Positions 37,082 through 53,385 of a stretch of DNA of 64,000 bases are shown piece by piece. The DNA lies in assembly GCA_002372315.1 (NCBI GenBank), contig DFFU01000026.1, positions 1,230 to 65,229 on the forward strand. The letters are read 5' to 3'. The stretch comes from Alphaproteobacteria bacterium UBA3768. GTDB taxonomy: Bacteria; Pseudomonadota; Alphaproteobacteria; CAAHEQ01; UBA3637. A program made the position numbers and the translations under genes. Positions within the stretch are counted from its first letter, which is position 1. Each line of letters begins with the position of its first letter. The notes beneath the pieces were generated by a model. That model was not told the DNA's origin. It ran no database searches and saw only the letters and a list, made by a program, of their open reading frames with translations.

Positions 37082-37125
37082 TATTTAAGGAAGAATTAAA
37101 GTACTTATAAATAAATGCAACAAGA

Positions 37126-37201
37126 TGGTGGGTGCGACAGGGATTGAACCTGTGACCCCTACCGTGTGAAGGTAATGCTCTTCCTCTGAGCTAAGCACCC
37201 C
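37126..37201 (-). tRNA. tRNA-Val(CAC)-like gene, variant copy (attL side of island)
   Basis: The 3' 56 nt are identical to the tRNA-Val at 54619-54693. The D-arm differs (GCTTAGCTCAGAGGAAGAGC) and base pair 7-66 is a T.C mismatch. It has its own TTGACT-17-TATAAT promoter (revcomp of 37218-37246). Confidence 0.65.
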
Positions 37202-37647
37202 AAGTTCAACTGAAAGCATTATACAATAAAGGTTTTATAAAGTCAATAGGCAAAAATAGGAAAATTGAAAAATACTTTTTAAACCCTCTAAAATACCCCT
37301 AAATCTGTTTCAACTGTTGAAAAAATGTTGAAAAATGGTTCTGTTGAAAAAATATAAGAAGAGAAAATAAACAGATACCATCTCACATATCTTAAATTAT
37401 CTCACTTTTTCCAACACAAGAAAGGTTTCTGATACCCCCCTTTCTTGTGTATTTTTATGGGTTATGGCATCTTTCCCCCCACAAATTAACTGAAAGGGAA
37501 AGTATGACTAACAAGAAAGATTATCTCACATTTTCCAACATAATCTCAAATCCTCTAAAAAGCAGGATGAAATGTATGGTTGCCAAATATCTAAATAACA
37601 AGTTTTTCCATATACTTTCCAAGCATTTTAACTGAAAGGATTTTACA

Positions 37648-38943
37648 ATGGCAACAAAATTAAATCAAGTAATCACACTAAATCAAAAAGCAGTGGAAAA
37701 CTTACCAGTTCCACAAGAAAAGAGTGTCATATACTATGACACCAAAGAAGAGAAATTGTATCTCTTGGTAAGTAAAACAGGAACAAAAACATTTTACCTG
37801 TTATCAAGAGTGAAAAGCAGAGTGGCAAGAATTAAAATTGGCAGATTTCCTGACATTAAAGTTGAAAAGGCAAGAGAAATTGCCCAACAATTAAAAAGTT
37901 CTATTGCCACAGGTAATGACCCAGAGAAGAACAAACTTGCTCTTAAAGGGGATATTACCTTCAAGGAACTTTTTGATATGTATATTGAAAAGTATGCCAA
38001 AGACAACCTAAAATCTTGGAAGATTGGGCAGTATGTAATCAACAAACATTGCCAAAAGTTCTTCAACAGAAAATTGACAACCATAACCAACAAGGAACTC
38101 AAAGAGTTCATTGAGGAAGTGGCAACCAACAGCACTGATACTGCCAACACATTGCTGAAAAAACTGAAAGGCATTTTTAACAAAGGCATTGAATGGGAAA
38201 TCTACAAGGGGGACAACCCTGTCAATAACATCAAATCATACAAAGAAAACAGAAGAGATAGGTTCTTACAACCTATTGAACTGGGTGATTTCTTTGATGT
38301 CTTAAAGGATGAACCAGAGGATTTGAGGGATATTGTCATCCTTGGATTAAACACAGCAGCAAGAAAAAGCAATATTCTGTCTATGGAATGGAATGAACTG
38401 GACCTTGCTAACAATCTTTGGAGAATACCTGCCCATAAATCCAAAAATGGTGATGTAATGATTATTCCATTGTTGGATGAGGCAAAGAATGTTTTATTAA
38501 AAAGGAAAAGTGAAGATTTCCAAAGAAAATATCATTGTCATACAAGACAAGGAGAGAAACTAAAAAATCTTTTTGCCACTTATGTTTTCCCTTCTGTTAG
38601 GAATAAAGAAGGACACTTAATGGGATTTAGAAGGTTATGGGATGCTTTCAGAAAGCACTTTTTTGAGAAGTGTAAGTTATCAAAAGGTGATTTGGTTTTC
38701 CATGATTTAAGAAGAACTCTTGCTTCATTTGAAGCACTGACTGGGCAATATTCTTTACAGATTATTGGAAAATCATTAGGGCATAAATCTACTGCTTCAA
38801 CAGAAATCTATGCCAGATTACTAACAGAACCAGTTAGAGCATCCATGAATGCTGCCACAGATTTGATGAAAAAACAGATGGATTTTCCAACATTATCTCA
38901 AAAGGTAGAAGATTATCCAAGGTTATCCAAGAACAATGAGTAA
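37648..38943 (+). CDS. int: tyrosine-type site-specific integrase (phage integrase family)
   Basis: C-terminal catalytic box HDLRRTLASFEAL...GHKSTASTEIYARL (R, H-x-x-R, Y). N-terminal SAM-like/arm-binding domain. Adjacent to the tRNA-derived att site. Confidence 0.9.
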   Translation: MATKLNQVITLNQKAVENLPVPQEKSVIYYDTKEEKLYLLVSKTGTKTFYLLSRVKSRVARIKIGRFPDIKVEKAREIAQQLKSSIATGNDPEKNKLALKGDITFKELFDMYIEKYAKDNLKSWKIGQYVINKHCQKFFNRKLTTITNKELKEFIEEVATNSTDTANTLLKKLKGIFNKGIEWEIYKGDNPVNNIKSYKENRRDRFLQPIELGDFFDVLKDEPEDLRDIVILGLNTAARKSNILSMEWNELDLANNLWRIPAHKSKNGDVMIIPLLDEAKNVLLKRKSEDFQRKYHCHTRQGEKLKNLFATYVFPSVRNKEGHLMGFRRLWDAFRKHFFEKCKLSKGDLVFHDLRRTLASFEALTGQYSLQIIGKSLGHKSTASTEIYARLLTEPVRASMNAATDLMKKQMDFPTLSQKVEDYPRLSKNNE

Positions 38944-39013
38944 AAATGCTTATGGGTCAATGACTTATTTGAAGAAATGAAATAAGATATTTGACATAGA
39001 AAGGAGTAGAAAA

Positions 39014-39199
39014 ATGACTAAATTACTTACACCAGAAGAAACAGCAGAACTACTGAATGTTTCAATCAAATTACTCAATGATTGGAGATACAATCAGAAG
39101 GTAAATCTCCCCTATGTCAAAATTGGGAAATTGGTGAGATACAAATTGTCTGATGTTGAACAATTCATACAAGGATGTTGTGTTCAAATGAGTTTTTAA
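39014..39199 (+). CDS. AlpA-family phage/island transcriptional regulator or excisionase (HTH)
   Basis: 61 aa, LLTPEETAELLNVSIKLLNDWRYNQKVNLPYVKIGKLVRYKLSDVEQFI, the classic AlpA/Xis pattern. Confidence 0.65.
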   Translation: MTKLLTPEETAELLNVSIKLLNDWRYNQKVNLPYVKIGKLVRYKLSDVEQFIQGCCVQMSF

Positions 39200-39328
39200 G
39201 AAATGCCACTTAAAAGGTGGTTGCCAGAGAACTGGCAAAAAATCAAGGCAGGTGTCTTGTAGTTGTAAATGGAAGGAGCAACTTAAAAGAAGTCCAACCA
39301 AAGAAAGTATAACTGAAAGGTTTTTAAT

Positions 39329-40126
39329 ATGAAAAAGAATAACAAATATAAAAAACAAATGAGAAGAAAAAAAACAAATGCTGAAAAGAAGTTAGCACAT
39401 ACTAACTGCTTAAATCAGAAGGAAAATCTTACTTCAAGTATTGAGGAAGGAGAACAAGGTGGAAAAATACGTGTTTGTCATAGTATGATTCCTGCCTGGG
39501 GCACATCTGAAGATGAACAACTTGCCAAAGAAGTATTCCTTTTTTCAGAAGTATTTGACATGTTCCAATCTGACAAAATGGTGAATTTTGTAATTATGAA
39601 AATTACTTTTTTGGGTAAGGATGATGATATTAGTGATGCTATTGAAAAATTAAAAAGTTTTTCATCAACTCTCTCACCAAGTTTTTCTATAAGTGAAAAA
39701 GCTGTTGCTGATGGAGTATTCTTTGGTGGTTTTAATAAGCAAAGTAAGAGAGAGCACATTAGGTTAAGTAATGATGAATTATCTATTCAAATGGATGAAA
39801 CATTTGATGTTGGGGAATTATTTGGACTTAATCTAAATCAAGTTGAAAAGGTTTGTTTCACACTTCCAAAAGATTGCTCTAAAAAATTAAAAAAACAAAC
39901 TCACTTATTGAGGTCTTGTCTTTTGGGAATGATGTATGATAATGAGTTTAATATTTCAGAAATCTCTATTTCTTGTGAAAATCAAGCAGTTCTTATTGAC
40001 ATGATGAAAATGGAGAAAAAATTACCTTTCCCTCTACTGACTGAATTAAGCAAAGATTATGATGGGAAAATCATTGCTACAATCTCTAAAACATTTGGTT
40101 TAGGTGCTTTTAAGAAAGCAGCATAA
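39329..40126 (+). CDS. hypothetical protein (island cargo)
   Basis: 265 aa, preceded by the AACTGAAAGG motif. No recognisable domain. Confidence 0.4.
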   Translation: MKKNNKYKKQMRRKKTNAEKKLAHTNCLNQKENLTSSIEEGEQGGKIRVCHSMIPAWGTSEDEQLAKEVFLFSEVFDMFQSDKMVNFVIMKITFLGKDDDISDAIEKLKSFSSTLSPSFSISEKAVADGVFFGGFNKQSKREHIRLSNDELSIQMDETFDVGELFGLNLNQVEKVCFTLPKDCSKKLKKQTHLLRSCLLGMMYDNEFNISEISISCENQAVLIDMMKMEKKLPFPLLTELSKDYDGKIIATISKTFGLGAFKKAA

Positions 40127-40203
40127 ATCCAAAAAGTTGTATGTGGTTGGAGCAACTTAAAAGAAGTCCAACCAAGTAAATCTTACAGAAAAGGAGTAAA
40201 AAT

Positions 40204-40503
40204 ATGTGTAAGACAGCAAAAACCTTTGAAGGAGGGTTAAATCCTTCAAATAACAATGTTTCAACTTCAAAAGAAGAAAGAAACAAGACCCAAAAGTGGT
40301 TGGAAAATTGGATAAACAACTCATCTGCTTCCAATGATGAAAAATCAAAGGTCAAGCAATGGTTGGAAGATTGGGTTAAAGATACACCAACTGCTAATGA
40401 AAGTAAATCCAAAACAAAGGAATGGTTGGAAAAATGGTGCTCCAATAACAACCAAAATCCAACAAAACAATTCCTTGAATGTTGGATAAAGGATTGTGCC
40501 TAA
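40204..40503 (+). CDS. small tandem-repeat protein (about 4 x 21-aa K-x-K-x-WLE-x-W units)
   Basis: KTQKWLENWINN / KVKQWLEDWVKD / KTKEWLEKWCSN / TKQFLECWIKDCA. Confidence 0.4.
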   Translation: MCKTAKTFEGGLNPSNNNVSTSKEERNKTQKWLENWINNSSASNDEKSKVKQWLEDWVKDTPTANESKSKTKEWLEKWCSNNNQNPTKQFLECWIKDCA

Positions 40504-40606
40504 AATTAGGCAGATACTGCCTATGCTATATGTGTAGGCAGTATCCTTTCTAAAAATTACATTTTTTAATCATAAATACATTTGTAGTGAAAAAGGAGAA
40601 AATAAT

Positions 40607-41185
40607 ATGACAGATTTAACAATTACTCAAAGACATATTTTAGAATTTATTAGGTTCAAAACAAATAAGGGTTTTCCCTTTTATGGAAGTAATGAGTATG
40701 TTGCCAATGCTTTGGAAATAAAGGAAAGTTCAGCAAAAGTTCTTATCAACAAACTAATCAAGGATAATTATTTAATAAAATCCAGTGATATTAAGCATAA
40801 AAGAATTTTATCTTTATCTGGTAAGGAATATCCAAGAATGCCTTGGGTAAATATGTCAGATGTCAATAAATGGGAAATTCAAAAGAAAAGAGATGAATAC
40901 CTCAAAGAATATGAAACTGCTGATAAATGGGGTTATAAACTTCAAGCAGAAAATGATATTCTTCAAAAAAGATGTGGTGATTTACAAAGGAACTATGATG
41001 AGTTAAAAAAGGTATATGATGGGTTATCTAAACAATTACAAGAAACCTTTGTTCCTCAATATCAAGCAATGGCACAAAGAGTTAAAGGTTTGGAAAAATT
41101 ACTAAAAGAGCAATATGGTCTTACAGATAAGCAAATAAGTGTTATGTTAAAACCAGTAAGTATTCCTATTGGAGAATATTGTTGA
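40607..41185 (+). CDS. hypothetical protein with N-terminal winged-helix-like domain and C-terminal coiled coil
   Basis: ITQRHILEFIRFKTNKGFPFYGSNEYVANALEIKESSAKVLINKLIKDNYL, then heptad-rich sequence. Confidence 0.4.
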   Translation: MTDLTITQRHILEFIRFKTNKGFPFYGSNEYVANALEIKESSAKVLINKLIKDNYLIKSSDIKHKRILSLSGKEYPRMPWVNMSDVNKWEIQKKRDEYLKEYETADKWGYKLQAENDILQKRCGDLQRNYDELKKVYDGLSKQLQETFVPQYQAMAQRVKGLEKLLKEQYGLTDKQISVMLKPVSIPIGEYC

Positions 41186-41633
41186 GAGTTTTTAACTCCA
41201 TATTCTTACAATATTCATCTTTGGCAATATACATAAAGTCCCAACCTAATAATTTTCTCTGTTTCTTATCTTCTGTTGAGTAAAAATCTTTGTATTGGTT
41301 CAATAATTCTTTTATTTCTGCTTTTAATTCATCACTTGCTTCATCATTGTCATCAACATAGGTATAGCAAGAGCATCCATTAACATCCAAATAATTGGGG
41401 TCTCCACCTAATTCAAGCAGATATTTAACACTATCTGCTTTTAATGTAAATTGGCAACATAGTTGAAGTAAAGAAGACAAGTTCATAGTAATGGGTTCAT
41501 TTATGTATTCTATGGTGCTTATAATCTCATCCATCTTTTTAGGATTACTCATAACATCTACCATATTCTTATATCTAATTTCTACATTTAAGTTGGCAGT
41601 TTTATTATTACCTAATATTTTAATTAAAAACAT
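41166..41633 (-). CDS. hypothetical protein with one ankyrin-like repeat
   Basis: LLQLCCQFTLKADSVKYLLELGGDPNYLDVNGCSCYTYV. Confidence 0.3.
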   Translation of the reverse strand: MFLIKILGNNKTANLNVEIRYKNMVDVMSNPKKMDEIISTIEYINEPITMNLSSLLQLCCQFTLKADSVKYLLELGGDPNYLDVNGCSCYTYVDDNDEASDELKAEIKELLNQYKDFYSTEDKKQRKLLGWDFMYIAKDEYCKNMELKTLNNILQ

Positions 41634-41712
41634 TTCAAACCTCTTTTCTATATCATAAATATTTATTAGTTTTAGGTTAAACTATGTAATTTTTTAACCT
41701 TTTAATACAGGT

Positions 41713-41857
41713 GGAAATGACTATTGCCACTTTTTTTGTAGAGGAAATGACTATTGCCACCATTCTTTGATATAGGAATCAGTATTACTCTCATTGAGAA
41801 TGAATGTTTCAATTATTGAAAATGAGTATTACCATTAGAGGAAATGAATATTGCCAC
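41713..41857. repeat. iteron-like array: 3 good plus 3 degenerate copies of an 18-bp repeat GGAAATGA(C/A)TATTGCCAC at 21-33 bp spacing
   Basis: Copies at 41713-41730, 41743-41760 and 41840-41857 are identical or differ at one position. Degenerate copies lie at 41776-41790, 41797-41815 and 41818-41836. Confidence 0.5.
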
Positions 41858-42313
41858 CCCATTTTGGGATATGCCTTATTTTATAAGGGGTTTGATGGTG
41901 TTTTTTCTTCCTATAATAGTATTATAATAGAATTAAAAAAGAACTATTATAATAGTTCTTTTTCTTCTTTTTGTATAATAGCAAACTTGTTTAATGGGGA
42001 ATAATAGAGGTAGTTAAATAAAGGGAGATTAAATAACCCAAATTAAACAAGCAAATAAGTTAGTCCAATTAAAAAGGAAAATAATATGGGGATATTAAAC
42101 AAGGGAAAATAATATAGGGGCATTAGTCAGGTAAAATAATGAAACTGGAATAATGGAAACTGGGTGATGTGGGGTTGTTCTGCTGGGGTAGTTTTTTTGT
42201 GAGGGGACACCTCTAAATGAGATAAATAGTTATGAGTAATTTTGAACTCTTTTTTCATTACAAACCCCACCATTTCTGGTGGGGATTTTTATGAAAAATA
42301 ATTAAAATATTTT

Positions 42314-42345
42314 TGACTTTCTATGGGTAAATATGGTATAATATA
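42314..42345 (+). promoter_or_regulatory. sigma70-like promoter TTGACT-18-TATAAT upstream of the restriction gene region
   Basis: tttgactttctatgggtaaatatggtataat. Confidence 0.4.
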
Positions 42346-42351
42346 AATACA

Positions 42352-42465
42352 ATAAAAGAGAAATAAAACATCATCTTTTTTTGTTTTATCTAATATAATT
42401 TTCATTGTCATAAAACCAAGTTAATTGTTTTACCTGCCAGTAAAATGGCAGGTTTTTAGTATTTT
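42352..42465 (+). ncRNA. candidate short transcript or leader (about 110 nt) ending in a Rho-independent terminator (CCTGCCA gtaaaa TGGCAGG + U-run at 42431-42465)
   Basis: A promoter immediately upstream and an intrinsic terminator about 105 nt before the restriction-gene ATG at 42573. A second hairpin+T-run (CCCCACC atttct GGTGGGG) at 42266-42295. Confidence 0.3.
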
Positions 42466-42572
42466 TTTATATGAGATGTCAAAATCTGCCATCCTAAAAA
42501 CTTTTTAGTTTGCTTTTTTTATCATAATAGTTTAACATATCCCAATGATTAAATCAACACAAGGGAGTTGTT

Positions 42573-45500
42573 ATGACCAAACCAATAGTTTCATTTAATG
42601 ATGTTTTATCCAAGTTTAGAGCAGAAGCATTCTCTGAAAGGGATAAAGGGTTCAGATTTGAAAAACTGATGAAGAAATATCTTCAAATTGAACCTCAATA
42701 CAAAAACATCTTAAAGACAGTGTGGTTATGGAATGAGTTTCCATTTAGAAATGATTTTAGTGGAAAAGATACAGGAATTGACTTGGTTGCTCAAACAGTT
42801 GAAGGAGATTACTGGGCAATTCAATGTAAATGTTTCAGAGAGGATGCTTATATTGACAAATCAGGTGTTGATAGTTTCTTATCCACATCCAGTAAAAGTT
42901 TCATGGGAGAAGATGGTAAAAGCAAACAATTTACCCAAAGATTATGGATTTCTACAACAAATCATTGGAATAGTGAAGCAGAAGAAACCATTAAAAACCA
43001 AAATCCCCCACTTCACAGGATTAGTTTAACAGATTTACAAAACACATCTGATTACATTGACTGGGATGAATTGGTCAATGGTATGGAAACAAGTGCCTTA
43101 AAAGAGAAAAAACATCCCAGAGACCACCAAATCCAAGCAATCAACAACTTCCATGAACATTTTAAAAATGCTGATAGAGGTAAGTTGATTATGGCATGTG
43201 GGACAGGTAAGACCTATACATCCTTAAAGATTGCTGAAAATGAAACTGATGGGAAAGGAACAATCCTGTTTTTAGTGCCATCTATTGCTTTATTGGGTCA
43301 AACTTTAAGAGAATGGAGTGCCCAAGCAGAAAAACCCATTTATCCTATCTGTATCTGTTCTGATGCTACTGTTGGACAGGATGAAGATGATGATATAAGT
43401 GTAGTTGATTTAGCATTACCTGCCAGCACAAATGTGAGAAGCATTGTCAATCAGTTTGAAGTTGCTAAAAAGAACCAGAAGGGAATGATAGTTGTATTCT
43501 CAACTTACCAATCCATAGATGTTATTTCCAAAGCACAAGCAGAATTAAATAAAAGACAGAAGGATAACTGTATCTTTGACTTGATTATCTGTGATGAAGC
43601 ACACAGAACCACTGGAATTATCTTAAAGGATAAAGAAAAAGGTGGTTATGATGAAAAATCCTTTACCAAAGTCCATGACAATAAATGGGTTGAAGCAAAG
43701 AAAAGATTGTATATGACAGCAACTCCAAGATTGTATAAGGAAGATGCCAAGAAAAAAGCAGAAGAAGGTGATGCTATACTTTGTTCAATGGATGATGAAG
43801 CAATTTATGGACAAGAAGTTTATAGAATTGGATTTGGTGAAGCAGTTGATAAGAGGTTGTTATCAGATTACAAGGTCTTGGTTTTAACATTAAAAGAAGA
43901 ACAAATCCCAGCAGCATTTAGAAGTATCATCAACTCTGGTAAGAAAGATAAAGAAATTACCACAGATGATGTCAGTAAGTTGATTGGATGTATAAATGCT
44001 CTGTCTAAAAGGGTTATAGAAGCAGATAAAGAGTTCAATGATGATAGAGCACCCATGAGGAAAGCAGTTGCTTTCTGCCAAAGCATTAAAGCATCCAAAA
44101 TGATTACTGGGATGTTTAATGAGCATAAAGATACCTATTACAATTCTCTCCCACAGGAAGAAAGAGAAAAGTTGGTGGGTGTAGAAGCAAAGCATATAGA
44201 TGGAACAATGGGAGCAAGTCAAAGAGATGAATTATTGACTTGGTTAAAAGATACCCCAGAAGATGGTAAAGAATGCCATATTTTAACCAATGTGAAGTGT
44301 TTGTCAGAAGGTGTTGATGTGCCATCACTGGATGCTGTGATGTTCTTGGCAGCAAGAAACAGTCAGGTTGATGTGGTCCAATCTGTTGGAAGAGTTATGA
44401 GAACAGCACCTGATAAGAAGTATGGATACATCATTATTCCTGTAATGATACCAGAAGGAATTAAACCAGAAGAAGCATTGGAGGATAACAAAAGATATGC
44501 TGTTATTTGGACAGTATTGAATGCTTTAAGAGCACATGATGACAGATTTGATGCTGAAATCAACAAAATCAACTTGAATAAGAAGAAAGGTGATAGAATA
44601 AAAGTCATTGGTGTTGGTAATGGTGAAGATGATGGGGATGGTAGTGGAAAACCAACCAGTAGAGACACCCAATTAGAAAGACAATTGACTTTACCATTAG
44701 CAGAATTACAAGAATTACAAAATGTGATTTATGCCAAAATGGTTCAAAAGGTTGGCAGTAAGAGATATTGGGTTCAATGGGCACAAGATGTTGCCAAGAT
44801 TGCTCAAAGATATATTGTTAAAATCAACCATCTAATTGAAACAGATACTAAATCACAAGAAGTATTCAATAAGTTCTTAAAAGGTTTAAGAAAGAACATC
44901 AACCCATCTGTATCCAAAGATGAAGCAATCCAAATGTTGGCACAGCATTTGATTACCCAACCTGTGTTTGAAGCATTGTTTGAAAATTATTCATTTGTAT
45001 CCAACAACCCTGTATCTAAATCCTTACAAAAGATGGTGGATTTATTGGAAAAGCAAGCAATGGATGAAGAAGGTGAGAAGACCCTTCATAAGTTCTATGA
45101 ATCTGTTAAAGAGAGAGTTAAAGGGATTGACAATGCTGATGGCAGACAGAAGATTATTATTGAACTGTATGATAAGTTCTTCAAAACTGCTTTCCCAAAG
45201 GTTGTGGAACAGTTGGGAATTGTCTATACACCAATAGAAGTAGTTGATTTTATAAACAATTCTGTTGCCCAAGTATTGAAAAAAGAGTTTAACAGGAACT
45301 TGTCTGATGAAAATATTCATATCCTTGACCCATTTACAGGGACAGGAACATTTATTACGAGGTTGATTCAAACTGGTTTAATTGATAAGGAAGCATTACC
45401 AAGAAAGTATGCCAAAGAACTTCATGCCAATGAGATTGTGCTGTTGGCATATTACATTGCTTCAATCAATATTGAAAATGCTTACCATGATGCTGTGGGT

Positions 45501-47465
45501 ATGGAAAATGGTTATAAGTCATTTGATGGTATTTGTTTGACAGATACCTTCCAATTGGGGGAAACAGATGAAGCAACCAACCTGTTTGATGAAATGCTCC
45601 CACAAAACTCTGAAAGAGTGATGGAACAAAAGAAATTACCTGTCAGGGTAATCATTGGGAATCCACCTTATTCCATTGGTCAGAAGTCAGCAAATGATAA
45701 TGCCCAAAACCAATCTTATCCAAAATTGGATAGAAGAGTTGAAGAAACTTATGCTAAATATTCCAATGCTGCTTTGAACAAAGGATTATATGATAGTTAT
45801 ATCAAAGCATTCAGGTGGTCATCTGATAGAATTGATGAAAAGAATGGAGGTATAATTGCCTTTGTATCAAATGGTAGTTGGATTGATGGGCAATCTATGG
45901 ATGGTTTAAGAAAAGCATTTGAAAAAGAGTTTAATTCCATATATGTCTTTAATATGAGAGGAAATACCAGAACAAGTGGAGAAACAGCAAGAAAAGAAGG
46001 GGGACAAACATTTGGAAGTGGATGTAGAACAACTGTTGCTATCACAATCTTGGTTAAAAATCCAAAAGTTGAAACAGAAAAAGCAACCATCTATTATACA
46101 CAAGTTCCTGATTATCAAAGTAGAGAGGACAAATTAGCATTATTAGCACACTATAAGGATATTACCAATAGTAGGATACAATTTAAGGTCCTAAAACCCA
46201 ATGAACATGGGGATTGGTTAAATCAAAGAAGTGATTTATTCAGTTCCTTCATACCCGTTGAACCTGATAAAAAGTTCAATCTTAAATCAACAAGTATGTT
46301 TAATTTAAATGTTATTGGAGTAGCAACTAATAGAGATGCCTGGGTGTATAATTATTCACAAAGAAATTTGGAAAGTAATGTGAGAAAAATGGTTGATTTT
46401 TATAATGAACAAAGAAAAGGGTATCAAACAGCATTACAAAAAAACAACTTGTTGAAAGTTGAGGATTTTATTGATATAGACCCAAAGAAAATTAGTTGGA
46501 CAAGAAGTTTAAGAAATCAAGTTAAAAATAACAAAGAAAATACATATCAGTCAGATGTTTATTATGAAGGTTGTTACAGACCATATTGTAAGCAACATTT
46601 GTATTATGAAAACTCATTTATTGAAAGTCCTGGTTTAAGTAAGCAATTATTCCCAACATCACAGCATAAAAATATGTGTATTGCTGTATCTGGCATTGGT
46701 GCTGGAAAAGATTTCTCAACTTTAATTGTAAATCAAGTTCCTTGCTTGGATATGGTTGAGAAAGGTCAATGCTTTCCACTCTATTACTATGAAAAGAATG
46801 AAGGGAATATTGGAACATTGTTTGATGATGGGAAAGACCAATATATCAGAAGAGATGGTATAACTGACTTTATCTTGGAACAATGTAGAACTAGATATGG
46901 ACATAAAGTATCCAAAGAGGATATCTTCTATTATGTCTATGGATTATTACATTCCAATGATTACAGAACCCAATTTGCTGCTGATTTGAAGAAAATGTTA
47001 CCCAGAATACCATTAGTGGATATTCCAAATGATTTCTTTGAGTTTAGTAAGGCAGGAAGACAATTGGCAGAACTTCATTTGAACTATGAAACTGTGCCTG
47101 CTTATCCAGATGTAGAGGTTATTGGTGAAGAAAAAGGAAACTTCCATGTGGATAAGATAACATTTGCCAAAAAGGATGGTGAAGTTGATAAAACAACCTT
47201 GATTTACAATTCTTCCATCAAAATTACCAATATCCCATTAGAAGCATATGACTATGTTGTCAATGGAAAGTCAGCAATAGAATGGATTATGGACAGATAC
47301 CAAGTCAAAGTTGATAAGGATAGTGGTATCAAAAATGACCCAAATGACTGGGGATTAGAACATAATAATCCCAGATACATCTTGGATCTGATTTTATCAG
47401 TTATAACAGTCAGTATGGCAACCAATGAAATAGTTAAAAAATTACCAAAGTTGGATTTGAAATAA
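42573..47465 (+). CDS. Type ISP-like single-polypeptide restriction-modification enzyme: Mrr-type PD-(D/E)xK nuclease + SF2 DEAH helicase-like motor + gamma-class N6-adenine methyltransferase + C-terminal target-recognition region (1630 aa)
   Basis: aa 60-90 GIDLVAQ...YWAIQCKCF (Mrr catalytic core). Walker A ACGTGKT (aa about 208), DEAH box LIICDEAHRT (aa about 341), motif VI QSVGRVMR (aa about 603). MTase motif I DPFTGTGTF (aa about 919) and motif IV NPPY (aa about 1030). GGIIAFVSNGSW and YVFNMRGN blocks typical of Eco57I/LlaGI-like MTases. AGA/AGG-rich island codon usage. Confidence 0.8.
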   Translation: MTKPIVSFNDVLSKFRAEAFSERDKGFRFEKLMKKYLQIEPQYKNILKTVWLWNEFPFRNDFSGKDTGIDLVAQTVEGDYWAIQCKCFREDAYIDKSGVDSFLSTSSKSFMGEDGKSKQFTQRLWISTTNHWNSEAEETIKNQNPPLHRISLTDLQNTSDYIDWDELVNGMETSALKEKKHPRDHQIQAINNFHEHFKNADRGKLIMACGTGKTYTSLKIAENETDGKGTILFLVPSIALLGQTLREWSAQAEKPIYPICICSDATVGQDEDDDISVVDLALPASTNVRSIVNQFEVAKKNQKGMIVVFSTYQSIDVISKAQAELNKRQKDNCIFDLIICDEAHRTTGIILKDKEKGGYDEKSFTKVHDNKWVEAKKRLYMTATPRLYKEDAKKKAEEGDAILCSMDDEAIYGQEVYRIGFGEAVDKRLLSDYKVLVLTLKEEQIPAAFRSIINSGKKDKEITTDDVSKLIGCINALSKRVIEADKEFNDDRAPMRKAVAFCQSIKASKMITGMFNEHKDTYYNSLPQEEREKLVGVEAKHIDGTMGASQRDELLTWLKDTPEDGKECHILTNVKCLSEGVDVPSLDAVMFLAARNSQVDVVQSVGRVMRTAPDKKYGYIIIPVMIPEGIKPEEALEDNKRYAVIWTVLNALRAHDDRFDAEINKINLNKKKGDRIKVIGVGNGEDDGDGSGKPTSRDTQLERQLTLPLAELQELQNVIYAKMVQKVGSKRYWVQWAQDVAKIAQRYIVKINHLIETDTKSQEVFNKFLKGLRKNINPSVSKDEAIQMLAQHLITQPVFEALFENYSFVSNNPVSKSLQKMVDLLEKQAMDEEGEKTLHKFYESVKERVKGIDNADGRQKIIIELYDKFFKTAFPKVVEQLGIVYTPIEVVDFINNSVAQVLKKEFNRNLSDENIHILDPFTGTGTFITRLIQTGLIDKEALPRKYAKELHANEIVLLAYYIASINIENAYHDAVGMENGYKSFDGICLTDTFQLGETDEATNLFDEMLPQNSERVMEQKKLPVRVIIGNPPYSIGQKSANDNAQNQSYPKLDRRVEETYAKYSNAALNKGLYDSYIKAFRWSSDRIDEKNGGIIAFVSNGSWIDGQSMDGLRKAFEKEFNSIYVFNMRGNTRTSGETARKEGGQTFGSGCRTTVAITILVKNPKVETEKATIYYTQVPDYQSREDKLALLAHYKDITNSRIQFKVLKPNEHGDWLNQRSDLFSSFIPVEPDKKFNLKSTSMFNLNVIGVATNRDAWVYNYSQRNLESNVRKMVDFYNEQRKGYQTALQKNNLLKVEDFIDIDPKKISWTRSLRNQVKNNKENTYQSDVYYEGCYRPYCKQHLYYENSFIESPGLSKQLFPTSQHKNMCIAVSGIGAGKDFSTLIVNQVPCLDMVEKGQCFPLYYYEKNEGNIGTLFDDGKDQYIRRDGITDFILEQCRTRYGHKVSKEDIFYYVYGLLHSNDYRTQFAADLKKMLPRIPLVDIPNDFFEFSKAGRQLAELHLNYETVPAYPDVEVIGEEKGNFHVDKITFAKKDGEVDKTTLIYNSSIKITNIPLEAYDYVVNGKSAIEWIMDRYQVKVDKDSGIKNDPNDWGLEHNNPRYILDLILSVITVSMATNEIVKKLPKLDLK

Positions 47466-48862
47466 TGGATATAAATGACTTTCTAACAGATTTACTTAAA
47501 AAAGATTTCAAAAAGAAATCTAAAGGAAAGTCAGCATCCAGTGCCATCAACGCCATTAAAACTGTATCAAGTCCTATGGAAGATAAGGATTATAAGTTAG
47601 ATAAGGCACAAGAAGAACTGTTTGACTTGATTGAAAACACCCATACAAATGTATTCATTCAAGGTCAGGCAGGAACAGGAAAATCAACTTTTATCAACCA
47701 CTTAAAGAAATATTCTGATAAAAGGATCAGAATTGTCTGTCCAACAGCAGTTGCTGCCATCAATGTTGGTGGAACAACCATACATTCTTTATTCAAATTA
47801 CCATTCTCTGATTTTTTTATCTTTGATGATCTATTAAAAGAAAAAAGACAGAAACTTAAATCCATCTTGAATAAGACAGATTTACTCATAATTGATGAAG
47901 TTTCTATGGTTAGACCAGATATGTTGGATATTATAGACCTGCTATCCAGACAAGCAAAAGGTAAGGATGAACCATTTGGTGGATTACAGATGCTTCTGAT
48001 AGGTGATTTATGCCAATTACCGCCAGTAATTAAATCCAATGCTTACCATATCTTTAAGGAAGCATATGGACATAGAAATCCATATTTCTTTGATGCCAAC
48101 TCTTATAAAGCAGGAAACTTTGAAAAAATTGAACTGACAAAGGTTTATAGACAATCTGACAAAGAATTATTGAAAAATCTTATCAGGGTTAGGGAAAACA
48201 AAGAGGTTGATGAAGCAGTTGAATACTTTAATACCTGTAAGATTGATGATGAAGATGTCCTCAATACTGCTATGACTATCACTCCTTATAAACAAGTAGC
48301 AGAAAACATCAACCAAAAGAGATTGGGAGAATTAGAAACTCCTGTTCATACTTATGTTTGCCAAACCAAAGGAACATTTGATGAAGCAAAGGAATGTCCT
48401 TCTCCCAGAGTTTTAACATTAAAAGAAGGTGCTTTGGTTATCTTTAATAAGAATAACCCACCGTCTTGGATAAATGGAACAAGTGGAATTATTGAGAAAT
48501 TGGAAGATGATGCTATTACTGTAAAGGTCTTAAAAACTGGTGAAAGTGTTGCTGTTAAAAGAGAAGAATGGAAAAGTTATCAGTATGATTATGACAGAGA
48601 AACAGGAACTGTTGTTGAAAAAGAAGTTGGGACATTTATTCAATTCCCATTACAACTGGGATATGCTCTGACTATTCATAAAGCACAAGGTAAAACTTTG
48701 GATAAAGTTGTAATAGACCTGAATAGAGGAGCATTTGCTCATGGTCAATTATATGTTGCTTTAAGTAGAACCAGAAAGAAAGCAGATATTCATTTAACTA
48801 AAAGAATTGATGTATCTGATATTATTATGGATGATAGAATTGTTGAGTTTATGGGGAAATAA
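47465..48862 (+). CDS. PIF1/RecD-like SF1B DNA helicase
   Basis: Walker A GQAGTGKST, Walker B LLIIDEVSMV, the PIF1 signature PFGGLQMLLIGDLCQLPPV, and C-terminal LTIHKAQGKTLDKVVIDL. The start codon overlaps the upstream stop (ATAATGG). Confidence 0.8.
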   Translation: MDINDFLTDLLKKDFKKKSKGKSASSAINAIKTVSSPMEDKDYKLDKAQEELFDLIENTHTNVFIQGQAGTGKSTFINHLKKYSDKRIRIVCPTAVAAINVGGTTIHSLFKLPFSDFFIFDDLLKEKRQKLKSILNKTDLLIIDEVSMVRPDMLDIIDLLSRQAKGKDEPFGGLQMLLIGDLCQLPPVIKSNAYHIFKEAYGHRNPYFFDANSYKAGNFEKIELTKVYRQSDKELLKNLIRVRENKEVDEAVEYFNTCKIDDEDVLNTAMTITPYKQVAENINQKRLGELETPVHTYVCQTKGTFDEAKECPSPRVLTLKEGALVIFNKNNPPSWINGTSGIIEKLEDDAITVKVLKTGESVAVKREEWKSYQYDYDRETGTVVEKEVGTFIQFPLQLGYALTIHKAQGKTLDKVVIDLNRGAFAHGQLYVALSRTRKKADIHLTKRIDVSDIIMDDRIVEFMGK

Positions 48863-48863
48863 G

Positions 48864-49676
48864 ATGCTAAAAGTTGGAACAAGAGAAGAAATTAAACAAT
48901 TCTTAAAGGAACATAATACAGGATTTTATGTGTATATCCTGTATCATCCAAACAAAACCCCATTCTATGTAGGTAAAGGAAAAGGAAAAGGAAATAGAGT
49001 ATTTCAGCATGAATATGAAGTAGAACATTCCCAGTATAATAATCCATATAAAATCAACACAATTAAAAAAATATACAGATTGGGGGGAACTGTTGGATAT
49101 GGTATTGACAATATCTTTGAACAGGAAGCAGATGCCTTTGCCAGAGAAAGAGAATTAGTAAAACAAATTGGGAGACCCCCATTAACCAATTTAACTGATG
49201 GAGGAGAAGGTGCTGTCAATTTAGACCTTATCTCAAAACAAAAACATAATGATACTCTTTGGGGAGATACTGGGGATAATCCAAGAAGTATTATAAACAG
49301 AACCTTCCAAGAATTAGCACCAGTAAAATCTGTGCCTATAAAACCACTCCAACAGTTCAAAGCAGTCCATCTAACTCCTCATCCAAAGGCAAGAAATTAT
49401 AGTCCAAGAGAAGCAGCAGCACTCTTTATCAGTTCTGTCTTTAATGGGGTTTTAATTGAAGAAGGAGCAATTATTCCAAGATTGGTCAATATCAAAGGGG
49501 TAGATGGAATTATAGAAAATGGAGTTGGAAGAGATATTTTAGTTGCTGGTTGGGCAACCATTATTCCAAATGATGACCCAACATTAGAACAATTCCAACT
49601 AACTAAAAGTGGTAAGGATGCTATCCAAAGATACATCAAGGATTTACCAAAAGAAGTGCTCAACAGGTATATGTAA
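48864..49676 (+). CDS. GIY-YIG nuclease domain protein
   Basis: N-terminus GFYVYILYHPNKTPFYVGKGKGKGNRVFQHEYE matches GIY...YIG...R...H spacing, and a Glu follows about 40 aa later (FEQEADAF). The ATG at 48864 comes right after the helicase stop; the track ORF begins at 48807. Confidence 0.65.
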   Translation: MLKVGTREEIKQFLKEHNTGFYVYILYHPNKTPFYVGKGKGKGNRVFQHEYEVEHSQYNNPYKINTIKKIYRLGGTVGYGIDNIFEQEADAFARERELVKQIGRPPLTNLTDGGEGAVNLDLISKQKHNDTLWGDTGDNPRSIINRTFQELAPVKSVPIKPLQQFKAVHLTPHPKARNYSPREAAALFISSVFNGVLIEEGAIIPRLVNIKGVDGIIENGVGRDILVAGWATIIPNDDPTLEQFQLTKSGKDAIQRYIKDLPKEVLNRYM

Positions 49677-49687
49677 AGGAGAATAAT

Positions 49688-49894
49688 ATGGGATTTTTTA
49701 GTGAATTATTTGGTGCTATTATGAACCAGAACAATAATTATGGAGATCAAAATTACCATAGAGGAGAACCCACAGCAGAAGATTACATTAGGTCTGGTGA
49801 AATAGAAAAAGACAACTATGATGATGGCAAAAGGAACACCATAGATGAGGATGGTGGTTTGTCTGATAGTTGGGACAAAGAGGATAGAGAATAA
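49688..49894 (+). CDS. small acidic hypothetical protein (68 aa)
   Basis: ORF with an SD (AAGGAGAA) directly after the GIY-YIG gene. Asp/Glu-rich. Confidence 0.3.
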   Translation: MGFFSELFGAIMNQNNNYGDQNYHRGEPTAEDYIRSGEIEKDNYDDGKRNTIDEDGGLSDSWDKEDRE

Positions 49895-50503
49895 TTAAAG
49901 GTTTCCTATCCCCACTTTCTTCAAATATCTACACATAGTTGTTGGATGAACTCCCATTATCTTGGATATTTTTGCTTGTGATATACCTTTATCAAGCAAT
50001 TTTTTTATCTTCTGTCTGCTCTTGGATAGTTTTAATTCTCTTGTCTTTGAACCCAATGGTCTTCCTAATTTTACATTCTGTTCTTTTAATTTATTTAATG
50101 CCATTCTAATTCTGGTGGAGATGTGGTCTCTTTCAATTTCAGCAGCAAGACCAAAGGTATATGCCATTATTTTGGATTGTAAATCATTCTTAAAGTTATA
50201 ATTCTCTTTAATACTGATAATTTTAATATCTTTATTAATAGCATCCTGTAAAATACCTGCCAGTTCATAAAGATTTCTTGCTAACCTACTAATCTCTGTA
50301 ATAATAATGGTATCCCCAGCAACTGCTGTTTCCATCAACTTACCTAATTCTCTTTTACTCAAAGGTTTTCTACTGCTAATGTTTTCCTCTATCCATCTAT
50401 CCACTTTAATCCTGTTGTTTTTAGCATATTCAACAATAGCAAAGTGTTGGTTGGAACAGGTTTGTTTCTTTTCCATAGAACACCTACAATATCCATAAAT
50501 CAT
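49895..50503 (-). CDS. serine recombinase (resolvase/invertase family)
   Basis: N-terminal catalytic domain IYGYCRCSMEKKQ (Ser nucleophile), the SRLARN motif, and a C-terminal HTH (ISQAKISKIMGVHPTTMCRYL). Confidence 0.85.
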   Translation of the reverse strand: MIYGYCRCSMEKKQTCSNQHFAIVEYAKNNRIKVDRWIEENISSRKPLSKRELGKLMETAVAGDTIIITEISRLARNLYELAGILQDAINKDIKIISIKENYNFKNDLQSKIMAYTFGLAAEIERDHISTRIRMALNKLKEQNVKLGRPLGSKTRELKLSKSRQKIKKLLDKGISQAKISKIMGVHPTTMCRYLKKVGIGNL

Positions 50504-50742
50504 AATTCACCTCTTTTTATTTTATTTATTGAAAATACAAGATTTTTTGTTGTAAGAAGTGTTAGCAAATAATCATTTGTTTTCTCAATGACTTATACAA
50601 TTCCTAATTACAACAAGATACAAATTGCCACATATTCCTTATTTTTCAATATATTCAATGGAATAATGAGGTGTTTTAGATACCTCTTTTTTATCTAAAA
50701 AAGTATTTGCTTTTTAACAAATGTTTTTGTAATATTCTGGGT

Positions 50743-51195
50743 ATGACTAAAACTTGTTGCTTTTTTGGTAATGCTACTATCTGGAATGTGAAGGAAATTG
50801 CTGATAAAATTAGGAAAGCAGTAGTTGATTTAATAACCAATAAGCAAGTTGATACTTTCTTGGTTGGGATTAAAGGTGAGTTTGAAACATTATCACATAA
50901 AATATTACAGGAAATAAGATTAGATTATCCAAATATTAAAATTATGCTGGTAATTGCTTATGAAAGAGACCTTCATAAATGTGGTTATCACTTTGATGAC
51001 TTTTATTATCCACCATTAGCAGAAGTTGGGTATAGGGGATGGAGCATTGCTAAAAGGAATGATTGGATTGTAGAACAAACAGATTATGTGATTGCTTGTA
51101 ATCAGTATCAAGGTAGAGCATACAACTATTGTAAAAAAGCAAAAAACAAAGGAAAAACCATTATTGAGATAGGAAAACAAGATGAACCTGTTTAA
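50743..51195 (+). CDS. SLOG-superfamily protein (DUF1273/YpsA-like)
   Basis: VDTFLVGIKGEFETLSHKILQEIRLDYPNIKIMLVIAYE ... DYVIAC ... KTIIEI matches the YpsA-like Rossmannoid pattern. Confidence 0.45.
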   Translation: MTKTCCFFGNATIWNVKEIADKIRKAVVDLITNKQVDTFLVGIKGEFETLSHKILQEIRLDYPNIKIMLVIAYERDLHKCGYHFDDFYYPPLAEVGYRGWSIAKRNDWIVEQTDYVIACNQYQGRAYNYCKKAKNKGKTIIEIGKQDEPV

Positions 51196-51364
51196 TTTTT
51201 TTAAGAAGAAACCTGAAAGCACATTAGATAAAGCATTAAAGGAAGTTGAAAGAGTTGGTAAGCAACAACCAGTAAAGGGAGTTGAGGCATTGGATGAATA
51301 TTTCAAAGCACATCCCTATAAAATGAAAAAGATAAAAAGTAAAAAAAGAACTAAAAAGCAATAA
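51182..51364 (+). CDS. small basic hypothetical protein (60 aa)
   Basis: ORF overlapping the end of the SLOG gene. Lys-rich C-terminus. Confidence 0.25.
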   Translation: MNLFNFFKKKPESTLDKALKEVERVGKQQPVKGVEALDEYFKAHPYKMKKIKSKKRTKKQ

Positions 51365-51412
51365 ATTACATCTTTTAACCAATAAATACTTATACCAACA
51401 AAGGATATAAGT

Positions 51413-51826
51413 ATGATGGATTATGATGATGTAGATATAGTGTTAGAAAACTTACCACTTTTATTACAAAATAAGGATAAGATATTAAATAATAAAACTT
51501 ATTCAAAATGTAAAATAAGAGGTTCAGGTATATTTTTTAAGAATAAAAACATCTATATTGGTTTTACATTAGGCAATTTGCTTAAATTATGGTCCAGTCC
51601 TTGTTCCTGTTGGAAGTTTAGTAAGTATTATACCTATAAGATGACCTTGTTTGGCAATGGTGAAGCAGATATATTCTCCAAAGCAGTTGATGGTTCTTAT
51701 CAGCAATCTTTAATAGATGGGGATTTAATTGTTCCACATATTGAAGATGCTGTAAGAATAGGTGAAATGGTGCTAATTCCAAAATGTATAGATGATGTAA
51801 TTAAAGAATTAAAGGAAAGTAGATGA
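51413..51826 (+). CDS. hypothetical protein
   Basis: 137-aa ORF whose stop overlaps the next start (ATGA). Confidence 0.4.
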   Translation: MMDYDDVDIVLENLPLLLQNKDKILNNKTYSKCKIRGSGIFFKNKNIYIGFTLGNLLKLWSSPCSCWKFSKYYTYKMTLFGNGEADIFSKAVDGSYQQSLIDGDLIVPHIEDAVRIGEMVLIPKCIDDVIKELKESR

Positions 51827-52257
51827 AATTTGATTTTAGTGAGATAAAGAAGTTTTTACAGGAAAAAGCAGATATTGCCAAAGTGGTATCTATATCACCA
51901 TCATTTGGTAGTGAATTTACCACAGATTTAAGTAATGCTACACTTATACCAAAGAAAAAAGAACCAACTATGAGTGATGAAGAACTACAATTCCTTGAAT
52001 TATGCCAAAAACTTTTAAGAAAACTTGGTTTCATAAAAACAAGTTATGACTTTTCAGAGCAATTCATGGGTAAGAGTAAGCATTATTATTCAATGCTTTT
52101 AAGTGAAGGTAGGCAATGTTCCATAGATGGATTACACAATTTAATTAAAAATATTGAAACATTGAATGATGTTCCTGCCACTTCATCAAAATATTTGGAT
52201 GATTTAATAGAAAAAGGAAATAAACTTTTAACCAAAAGGTTGCTGAAATACTTTTAA
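51823..52257 (+). CDS. hypothetical protein
   Basis: 144-aa ORF translationally coupled to 51413-51826. Confidence 0.4.
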   Translation: MKFDFSEIKKFLQEKADIAKVVSISPSFGSEFTTDLSNATLIPKKKEPTMSDEELQFLELCQKLLRKLGFIKTSYDFSEQFMGKSKHYYSMLLSEGRQCSIDGLHNLIKNIETLNDVPATSSKYLDDLIEKGNKLLTKRLLKYF

Positions 52258-52412
52258 TTTTACTTTTATTTTCAAAATTCTCATACAGCAACTTGGTTGT
52301 TCCTCATAATTCAATAATTATGGGGAATTTTTATTGTAAAATCAGAGTTTAGTTGGACCATACATAAAAAAAGTGTAAAAACAGAGTTAAATGTATTGAC
52401 AATTTTACAATT

Positions 52413-53015
52413 TTGCGATATTGTAATGCGACTTTTAAGAGTTCAAATTTACAAAAAAAGGAGCATTCAATGGATTTTGGGTATAAAAGAGTATCAACCA
52501 TAGACCAATCAACCGAAAGACAATTGGAAGGAATTAAACTGGACCGAGTTTTTGAAGATAAACTATCTGGTAAGGATAGGAATAGACCACAATTGGACTT
52601 GCTGTTGTCAATTTTAAGAGAAGGAGACACAATCCACATTCATAGTATGGATAGGTTAGCAAGGAACACCAGAGACCTACTCAATTTGGTGGAAGAAATT
52701 ACAGGAAAGAATTGTAAAGTCATCTTTCACACAGAACATCTGTCCTTTGAACCTAATAAAACAGACCCATACCAACAGTTGATGATGACAATGTTGGGAG
52801 CAGTAGCACAATTGGAGAGAAGTTTAATCCTTCAAAGACAGAAGGAGGGGATTGCCATTGCCAAGAGTAAAGGAAGATTTAAGGGAGGGAAAAGTAAGTT
52901 ATCAGCAGAACAGGTGCTGGAATTAAAGGAATTATCCAAAACCAACTCAATTACATCTCTGGCAAAAAAGTTTGGTATCACCAGACCTACTTGCTATGCT
53001 TATTTGAAAGGATAA
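52413..53015 (+). CDS. serine recombinase (resolvase/invertase, Hin/Gin-like)
   Basis: FGYKRVSTIDQ catalytic Ser, the DRLARN motif, and a C-terminal HTH (ITSLAKKFGITRPTCYAYL). Confidence 0.85.
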   Translation: MRYCNATFKSSNLQKKEHSMDFGYKRVSTIDQSTERQLEGIKLDRVFEDKLSGKDRNRPQLDLLLSILREGDTIHIHSMDRLARNTRDLLNLVEEITGKNCKVIFHTEHLSFEPNKTDPYQQLMMTMLGAVAQLERSLILQRQKEGIAIAKSKGRFKGGKSKLSAEQVLELKELSKTNSITSLAKKFGITRPTCYAYLKG

Positions 53016-53017
53016 TC

Positions 53018-53272
53018 TTATTGGCAGGTTAGTAGAAGGTATTTCTCTGTAATTACCTTTTCTCTTTCTTTGACTTCAAACTTAATGTGATGGTTCATAA
53101 ATGTAATCTCCCCAGATTTATGTTCCTTATCATCATCCTTAAAATCATTATAATTAGCAATTAGTTGTTCAAGTTGCCACATTTCCTTACTATTAAATAA
53201 AGGGAAATCTGGGGGTGAATAGACCTTTGTAAATTGTTTCCTAATCTTATCATTTTCTTTTGATGGTTTCAT
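53018..53272 (-). CDS. hypothetical protein (84 aa)
   Basis: ORF on the minus strand between a resolvase and the pentapeptide-repeat gene. Confidence 0.3.
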   Translation of the reverse strand: MKPSKENDKIRKQFTKVYSPPDFPLFNSKEMWQLEQLIANYNDFKDDDKEHKSGEITFMNHHIKFEVKEREKVITEKYLLLTCQ

Positions 53273-53385
53273 AAGAACCTCCTGTAAAGATTAGATATCA
53301 AAATCCCCCTAAAATAAAGCAGGGGGATGATATTTTCAGTGAATCCAATATAAATGTTGGAATATTTGAGATAATCTTGGATTAT

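Follow-up and report, generated by a model that had tools for sequence, protein, structure and literature searches.

Iteron-type theta replicons of the pPS10/pSC101 pattern combine an AT-rich element, direct repeats phased at about 22 bp, and a gene for the winged-helix protein that binds them. A similar combination is found at the locus considered here, a 940-bp gap (41634-42572) in a stretch of 64,000 nucleotides from contig DFFU01000026.1 of Alphaproteobacteria bacterium UBA3768 (GenBank assembly GCA_002372315.1); we refer to the whole stretch as the window and number all positions from its first letter. The gap separates a 155-aa ankyrin-like open reading frame (ORF; 41633-41166, minus strand) from the gene for a 1630-aa Type ISP restriction-modification enzyme (42573-47465, plus strand), and the putative binder is a 192-aa HTH_36-like helix-turn-helix (HTH) protein encoded at 40607-41185 on the plus strand, convergent with the ankyrin-like ORF. 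The 940 bp consist of two unrelated and independent parts, 41634-42295, which is organized on the minus strand, and 42296-42572, next to the restriction gene. The reading that we favor for the first part, with a probability of roughly 0.4, is that it would be an iteron-type replication origin and operator bound by the 192-aa protein.

The O protein of phage lambda offers a second comparison, in which N-terminal winged-helix dimers bind four dyad iterons next to an AT-rich region. Dyad repeats, a putative winged-helix binder and an AT-rich neighbor recur in the present locus, with protein similarity only at the level of weak PHROG matches of the 192-aa protein to phage O-like initiators (E ~0.006-0.009). 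The lambda iterons lie inside the O gene and the O C-terminal domain binds P, whereas no P-like or helicase-loader gene is conserved here. The locus also departs from the iteron Rep pattern in that its candidate binder has one winged helix and an 88-residue coiled coil in place of two winged helices, and in that each repeat is itself a dyad. An HTH_36-like domain is shared with the Rep proteins of pKL1 and of the Paracoccus plasmids pAES7, pMARC3 and pMOS2, and plasmid initiators of the HTH_36 type, whose iteron origins precede rep, have been documented (PMC3832669). SGI1 is an integrated island with its own iteron origin (PMC7433901), and the island described below resembles it in being integrated and tRNA-bound and, if our reading holds, in carrying its own oriV.

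Other systems are relevant as well. KfrA belongs to IncP/IncU plasmids; that of RA3 has an HTH domain and a long alpha-helical tail, autoregulates through five promoter repeats, and serves in element maintenance as well (PMC7783346). By description it resembles the present system in its small N-terminal HTH domain and long helical tail, and its multi-repeat operator at its own promoter may be comparable to the present array, but the KfrA sites are 9-bp direct repeats overlapping the promoter, and the partners KfrC, IncC and KorB are absent here. In controller (C) proteins of restriction-modification operons, the C-boxes are a pair of neighboring dyads that directly precede the C gene and the nuclease operon. 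The locus shares with C-protein control a helix-turn-helix protein and repeated dyads near a restriction gene; it differs in that the array faces away from that gene and is conserved without it, in that the enzyme is a single polypeptide, and in that the module accompanies Type I genes, DpnII genes or no restriction genes at all, and is convergent to those present. For Par of the Staphylococcus plasmid pSK1, partition by a single protein is described in a source that cites Simpson 2003 and Chan 2022 (PMC11500499). The DNA-binding head, coiled coil, variable tail and upstream repeat cluster of Par have counterparts in relatives of the present locus; in the window the array does not precede the gene of the 192-aa protein. 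In contrast to the arrangement here, in which the elements are integrated and have no rep, pSK1 par stands beside a true rep gene on a plasmid; the repeats here are also of a different kind, 16-18-bp dyads with fixed 22/31-bp spacing.

A phased repeat array and AT boxes on the minus strand

The 18-mer GGAAATGACTATTGCCAC occurs exactly at 41713 and 41743 and with one mismatch at 41840, with no other site in the 64 kb, where 0.06 matches would be expected by chance against the three seen. Three degenerate copies, at 41774, 41796 and 41818, were validated by column-by-column alignment with the well-kept copies of relatives. The claim of the original prediction, made from the letters of the window, that six repeats are present and three of them strong is therefore borne out. 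Together these repeats form an array of six dyads at 41713..41857, with the minus-strand consensus GTGGCAATAnTCATTTCC. Read on that strand they start at 41840, 41818, 41796, 41774, 41743 and 41713, with spacings of 22, 22, 22, 31 and 30 bp (start to start in plus-strand order, 30, 31, 22, 22 and 22 bp), so that neighboring repeats are separated by two or three turns of the DNA and all six face the same side of it. The segment 41634-41990 aligns with related loci element by element and always in the minus orientation, with its array in register with theirs and blastn E values down to 5e-21.

Between the array and the ankyrin-like ORF lies the putative promoter and leader region of the module (41634..41712, minus strand), which consists of TTACAT at 41689-41684, an 18-nt spacer, TAAATA at 41665-41660, the Shine-Dalgarno (SD) sequence AAGAGG, and the ATG at 41633. 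TAAATAttt together with an upstream ATTACA is kept at the leader position in all lineages, and TTACAT-18-TAAATA probably acts as a promoter. On its other side the array is followed by a spacer (41858..41910, minus strand) with a small hairpin, CCTTAT-N3-ATAAGG (41874-41888), and a TCAAAC..CCCTT motif. The equivalent spacers in three related loci (L014, L016 and L017) have hairpins of different sequence, and the TCAAAC..CCCTT motif is conserved.

Beyond this spacer is an element with four (C)TATTATAAT-type boxes (41911..41981), located at 41911-41919, 41920-41931, 41944-41955 (the palindrome CTATTATAATAG) and 41974-41981. With a GC content of 15.5% it is the AT-richest part of the module, and the 60-mer of lowest GC coincides with it in seven of the eight modules scanned, the window included. 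Across all lineages the boxes do not vary, and they stand 22-25 bp apart. This element is a candidate for an unwinding element, for -10 boxes readable on both strands, or for both. Neither these conserved boxes nor the minus-strand module that would drive the 155-aa gene had been singled out in the original prediction, which instead drew attention to a tract at 41990-42130 as AT-rich and repetitive. That tract does contain tandem units of 14, 28 and 15 bp, but it is purine-rich (70% on the plus strand, GC 28%) and is not the AT-richest sequence of the region.

The tract is part of a spacer that is pyrimidine-rich on the minus strand (41982..42264; 62% purine on the plus strand) and that includes the three tandem units. 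Relatives have an analogous T/C-rich spacer of ~130-190 bp at the same position, with no detectable sequence similarity to 41982-42264. On the minus strand we also note five ATTATT(TT)CC motifs in this spacer that resemble hybrids of an AT box and a repeat half-site. A structured RNA was sought in 41985-42295, and the fold is no better than those of shuffled sequences (z -0.17).

The module is bounded at its far end by a hairpin of 8 bp, 6 of them GC (42265..42295). The stem-loop at 42265-42284, CCCCACCA-TTTC-TGGTGGGG, has a predicted stability of -15.4 kcal/mol (z -3.3) and is followed by ATTTTTAT; its T-run is good on the plus strand and weak on the other. Terminator-like sites number three, compared with an expectation of 0.5, and both of those predicted earlier in the gap, this hairpin with its T-run and the intrinsic terminator of the restriction-gene leader (see below), are confirmed, with their T-runs on the plus strand. 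None of the ORFs within the region has a ribosome-binding site (RBS), a promoter or a homologue, and these small ORFs were rejected as genes on those grounds; one of 66 aa (41804-42004), which overlaps the repeats, is called in the public assembly. Searches of the region against Rfam gave chance-level matches only, at gathering as well as permissive thresholds, and blastn against plasmids and phages gave no match.

Conservation and covariation in related loci

We fetched 23 related loci, which represent several lineages with protein identities of 25-51%. An array of 6-7 dyad sites lies directly upstream of the homologue's gene in 23 of 23, with spacings of 22, 22, 22, 30-31 and then 21-32 bp, and two to four TATTATAAT boxes are found 255-381 bp upstream of the ATG. 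The order of parts is the same in the relatives and the window: terminator hairpin, pyrimidine-rich spacer, TATTATAAT boxes, short spacer, dyad repeats, and promoter with leader. A terminator-like hairpin marks the corresponding far boundary in all of the related modules. The half-site differs by lineage, being GGAAAT in one, GGCAAT/GGAAAT in that of the window, and GACAAT or ACAAT in others, so that the repeat sequence covaries with the protein lineage; the AT boxes are unchanged across lineages. This covariation fits a specific binder acting on the repeats together with an element that is recognized by the host or is prone to melting. Since the module is kept upstream of the homologues and its half-sites are lineage-specific, the array co-evolves with the 192-aa protein as a conserved cluster of sites. 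The earlier proposal that the winged-helix protein encoded at 40607-41185 is a candidate binder thus gains strong support from comparison.

The relatives reside in small chromosomally integrated elements flanked by housekeeping genes. Integrases or serine recombinases are encoded in them, as are small ankyrin proteins and a cargo that varies and includes Type I and DpnII restriction systems, GmrSD, a PLD nuclease and WYL/AAA genes. Defense genes are located on the other side and run convergently to the HTH gene, and none of the elements has a Type ISP gene. The islands of the relatives and that of the window have in common the 192-aa protein, more weakly a small Ank-like gene, and the module, and nothing else. 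Because this protein, along with the small Ank-like gene, is all that the islands share, the HTH gene and module pair behaves as an autonomous cassette.

DnaA-box-like sites occur in two of the related loci only, L021 and L020, of a single lineage. In L021 (7037-7450), and also in L020, there are three sites that match the DnaA box at 8 of 9 positions against ~0.2 expected; they lie in a 40-nt duplicated unit between the small ankyrin gene and the boundary terminator. In addition, three independent Logan contigs (L152, L153 and L154) all end 20 bp past the HTH stop codon, which suggests a repeat or a population-variable junction, such as an element end or a cargo hot spot, behind the gene.

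Short contigs with family members, considered as possible small plasmids, proved to be fragments of the same kind of island. A scan of viral contigs for TATTATAAT boxes matched at least 120 AT-rich stretches, many of them in metagenome-assembled genomes of giant viruses; since no family member lies near any of them, these are chance matches of a low-complexity pattern.

The 192-aa protein and its family

The 192-aa protein matches Pfam HTH_36 below threshold (E 3.8e-4, 20.6 bits, against a cut-off of 25 bits). A word-indexed protein search returned only the protein itself, and a full HMMER search was needed to find its 54 relatives. Among the 34 family members aligned, 29 match HTH_36 and five match DnaD_N weakly. 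Members of the family share an N-terminal winged HTH (wHTH) domain, a long coiled-coil helix and a variable tail. The AlphaFold (AF2) model of the window protein is confident (pLDDT 93); in it the wHTH spans residues 1-75, and one helix of 88 residues spans 83-170. Many members end in a short conserved helix, a C-terminal motif that is lacking in the window protein. Dimers of the protein would occupy the six dyads of the array.

The best fold matches are regulators of the MarR, LexA and Crp types, and the winged helices of DnaD, TubR and ORC are also listed, as is the N-terminal DNA-binding domain of 4pql, the RepA of a staphylococcal plasmid. With repressors, DnaD, TubR and ORC all among the matches, fold search cannot decide between functional readings. 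Profile comparison by hhalign gave a probability of 10% against pKL1 Rep, 0% against pSK1 RepA and 1% against pSK1 Par, and the 25 Pfam families that the 34 aligned members hit most frequently do not include DUF536. A tblastn search of plasmids and phages with the protein gave no match, and a scan of viral contigs with the family profile found no member.

Exchange of leaders between the two convergent ORFs

In the window it is the 155-aa ORF, and not the HTH gene, that lies behind the module. The AT boxes precede its ATG by 298 and 323 bp, a geometry that matches the one at the HTH genes of relatives. The 155-aa protein is 32% identical (E 3.5e-7) to the product of the module-flanking gene of L013, and it matches the same PHROG (9262) as does the small Ank gene of L021. 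In the relatives, small ankyrin genes flank the module on its other side. Conversely, the leader and promoter region of the HTH gene in the window (40552..40606, plus strand) shares homology with the leader that the ankyrin-like gene has in L012 and L013, with 82% blastn identity over 54-56 bp to L013 656-601 and L012 291-238. The two ORFs have thus swapped leaders, and in the window the module would drive the 155-aa ankyrin-like gene. The leaders form an imperfect inverted repeat (I1, 40552-40576/41670-41694; 25 nt, 80% complementary) around the tail-to-tail ORF pair. With each ORF behind the other's leader and an inverted repeat around the pair, one inversion is sufficient to explain the arrangement in the window.

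The probable leader of the restriction gene

The second part of the gap, 42296-42572, contains a predicted sigma-70 promoter, TTGACT-18-(TG)TATAAT (42313..42342, plus strand), which matches the consensus at 11 of 12 positions and would start transcription near 42349. This promoter had been predicted at coordinates off by 1-3 bp and is otherwise as described. Promoter sites with at least 11 of 12 matches number 15 in the window against 3.7 expected, a four-fold enrichment, and they lie mostly before genes and tRNAs, so that consensus promoters appear to be meaningful in this organism. The leader that follows (42349..42572, plus strand) contains an intrinsic terminator, a palindrome and an SD sequence. 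The terminator hairpin at 42432-42453 has a predicted stability of -14.3 kcal/mol (z -4.4), which none of 200 shuffled sequences equalled, and is followed by TTTTTAGTATTTTTTT with a T-run to 42469. The 15-bp palindrome CTAAAAACTTTTTAG (42494-42508) lies between the terminator and the start of the restriction gene, and the SD sequence AAGGGAG (42561-42567) pairs with an upstream UCCC in the predicted centroid fold. The palindrome and the SD pairing (42494-42508, 42540-42567) could represent a protein site, a means of translational damping, or both.

No promoter with at least 9 of 12 matches is present between the terminator and the ATG of the restriction gene. Accordingly, 42313-42342 is plausibly the promoter of that gene, and the Type ISP gene is probably transcribed through the terminator at 42432-42453. 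The promoter-terminator pair noted in the original prediction is thus real as sequence and plausibly forms the leader of the restriction gene. The segment 42296-42572 has no counterpart in relatives, plasmids or phages and matches no Rfam family.

The tRNA-Val island

The window has a GC content of ~34% and belongs to a low-GC bacterial chromosome; its sequence is identical in two public assemblies. The gap lies in an integrated island of ~17.5 kb bordered by direct repeats of 57 bp (37125-37181 and 54618-54674) that correspond to the 3' part of tRNA-Val(cac); ARAGORN calls full tRNA-Val genes at both copies. A Logan contig of 17,496 bp, considered as a possible circular form of the island, was rejected as such: it spans exactly 37152-54647 and is the unitig between the 57-bp repeats.

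Besides the 192-aa HTH protein, the island encodes a tyrosine integrase (37648-38943), an AlpA/Xis-like HTH protein (39014-39199) and, between the latter and the 192-aa HTH gene, ORFs of 265 and 99 aa without known family. The 265-aa protein has two relatives only, both on contigs of at most 1.5 kb. In the 99-aa ORF (40204-40503) there are four repeats rich in tryptophan, with the pattern K-x-(Q/K/E)-W-L-E-x-W, and its one relative seen is on a 1.5-kb metagenome contig (L008), beside a 93%-identical copy of the 265-aa ORF. A scan of genome representatives for the integrase found distant relatives only (at most 38% identity), without useful context. On the other side of the gap, the Type ISP enzyme matches Pfam Mrr_cat_2, ResIII, ISP_coupler, Eco57I and Type_ISP_C, is labeled REase_MTase_IIG by PADLOC, and is cargo of the island, outside the conserved module. 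Directly after it and overlapping it are genes for a PIF1/RecD-like helicase of 465 aa and a PD-T4-3-like GIY-YIG protein at 47465-49676, neither of them conserved in related islands; they may constitute a second defense system or be accessory to the Type ISP enzyme. Two serine recombinases (49895-50503 and 52413-53015) and several ORFs of unassigned family complete the gene list.

Discussion

The comparison above bears first on whether the module could serve as an origin. The direct repeats are at least three in number and are phased at helical multiples in the window as in the relatives, the adjacent AT-rich region lies on the side away from the gene for the putative binder, and this gene is beside the repeats in 23 of 23 relatives, while that of the window is 530 bp off, beyond one gene. 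An invariant AT element at a fixed distance from lineage-specific sites resembles an unwinding or host-recognized element beside the sites of an initiator, and no other conserved candidate for a replication gene was found in these elements. In the mechanism that we propose, the module would provide initiator sites and an unwinding element for the excised 17.5-kb tRNA-Val island, and would double as control region of the promoter just downstream, as in iteron plasmids. That promoter would drive the initiator gene itself in the relatives and, after the ORF exchange, the 155-aa ankyrin-like gene in the window.

Several observations weigh against an origin. Only integrated copies are seen among the relatives, with no extrachromosomal form in the data, and no family member is on a known plasmid, phage, viral contig or small circular contig. 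The module of the window contains no TTATCCACA (DnaA box) at up to one mismatch and no IHF consensus. The 192-aa protein has a single winged helix, its best fold matches are ordinary repressors, and it has no detectable relation to Rep_3, RepA_N or pKL1 Rep; dyad-symmetric sites, in turn, suit repressors as well as initiators. Finally, three of the six repeats in the window are degenerate and the array is uncoupled from the gene of its protein, so that this copy of the module could be a decaying or re-used remnant. On balance the iteron origin or partition site named in the original prediction stands as the best or second-best functional reading of the repeats, short of proof.

A rival reading, possible though doubtful in our judgment, is that the repeats form an operator array of the KfrA or repressor-switch kind, which would mediate autoregulation in the relatives and control of the ankyrin-like gene in the window, with the TATTATAAT boxes as divergent -10 elements and no role in replication. 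The position of the array, always just upstream of the conserved ATTACA-17/18-TAAATA and RBS, is what such an operator would have, and each site is a dyad, as for dimeric repressors. The sequence ATTATAAT reads TATAAT on both strands, the best fold matches of the 192-aa protein are regulators, all elements are found integrated, and RA3 KfrA provides a precedent in architecture and autoregulation. The geometry is harder to reconcile with simple repression, for which six or seven sites spread over 145-190 bp and ending ~18-25 bp upstream of the -35-like box would be unusual; the overlap with the promoter that characterizes KfrA is approached in the L014 lineage only, by a seventh site over the -35-like box. 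The AT element lies at a fixed distance of ~40-60 bp from the first repeat and is strictly kept across protein lineages that are only 25% identical, which is more than a promoter would call for, and a -35 partner for its boxes is not evident. The cassette is also kept as a unit in the window, where the protein gene is no longer downstream. There is no copy of the repeat before int/xis or elsewhere in the island, and hence the array is not the master switch of excision here.

For the restriction-proximal part of the gap, the simplest reading is a constitutive damping leader, in which the Type ISP gene would be transcribed by read-through only and the terminated product would be a ~110-nt RNA of no known family; the segment may accordingly be described as a leaky attenuator or as the source of that RNA. 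The minimum free energy and centroid folds of the 242-nt leader contain no competing antiterminator structure, and there is no homologous leader by which to gauge the conservation of 42296-42572. Alternatively, 42349-42465 might encode a free-standing small RNA of ~110 nt, for example an antisense to a minus-strand transcript, and not a leader at all. A strong promoter and a strong terminator 110 nt apart, with a fold z of -2.6, would suit such an RNA, which would be antisense to a 40-aa minus-strand ORF (42411-42289) ending just before the hairpin 42284-42265. We regard this as unlikely: the 40-aa ORF has no SD sequence and no promoter with at least 9 of 12 matches, as would be needed for a type I toxin-antitoxin pair, the RNA has no Rfam match and no homologue in plasmids, phages or relatives, and the restriction gene would be left without a recognizable promoter.

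Improbable, to a further degree, is a centromere or tether like that of pSK1 Par, with the protein coating the repeats and its tail segregating or anchoring the excised element. The family is built like Par, with a DNA-binding head followed by a coiled coil and then a variable C-terminus, which in many family members ends in a short conserved helix; at least five 13-nt repeats lie directly upstream of pSK1 par, as we confirmed, and TubR, a centromere binder, is among the fold matches. Against these likenesses, there is no sequence relation to pSK1 Par by hhalign or through DUF536, no ParA, ParM or TubZ partner is present, and the window protein is without the C-terminal motif of many relatives. 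Partition without a replicon also makes little sense, and the elements contain no other replication function.

We give very little weight to the idea that the two-gene cassette is an invertible, programmed switch, toggling initiator or regulator versus ankyrin-like gene behind the repeat-controlled promoter and so turning on or off a minimal replicon of small defense islands that would be new to description. The leader exchange and the inverted repeat I1 would allow such a switch, with inversion perhaps catalyzed by one of the island's two serine recombinases, but in the sample SRR5322936 the 17.5-kb unitig is single and unbroken, which speaks against a mixture of orientations there.

Least probable of all is that the whole region regulates the toxic restriction enzyme, with the repeats as operators and the promoter-terminator pair as attenuator or small RNA: the region is directly upstream of the Type ISP gene, its promoter, its terminator and the possible SD sequestration do exist as features of the sequence, and restriction or defense cargo is often nearby in relatives, but the module is directed away from the Type ISP gene, with the hairpin 42265-42284 as insulation between the two, relatives have the module without a Type ISP gene and with their defense genes convergent on the other side, and the 290 bp proximal to the restriction gene are not conserved with any relative. 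This part of the original prediction, that the repeats are regulatory sites of the restriction enzyme, is therefore set aside. A single-polypeptide Type ISP enzyme carries its own methylase, and delayed expression of the nuclease is thus not needed.

A lesson for annotation follows, in that a long non-coding stretch before a restriction gene is not necessarily its regulatory region. The restriction leader, with its strong promoter and strong terminator, presents a small case of how a toxic single-chain enzyme may be held at a low level. As judged from sequence comparison, the cassette itself would be an undescribed variant of the pairing between a repeat array and a cognate winged-helix protein, of the origin, operator or centromere class. 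If the reading as an origin and control site is correct, it would define a new minimal maintenance cassette made up of a wHTH/coiled-coil protein of 170-260 aa, 6-7 dyads with 22/31-bp phasing, and invariant TATTATAAT boxes, common to small integrated islands with restriction and other defense genes. The hosts are ankyrin-rich, low-GC, uncultured Gram-negative bacteria from bovine and other metagenomes, and for organisms that lack any genetic tools the cassette would be a candidate replicon on which to build them. It would also serve as a ready marker for such islands, and it would explain how they persist or are amplified after excision.

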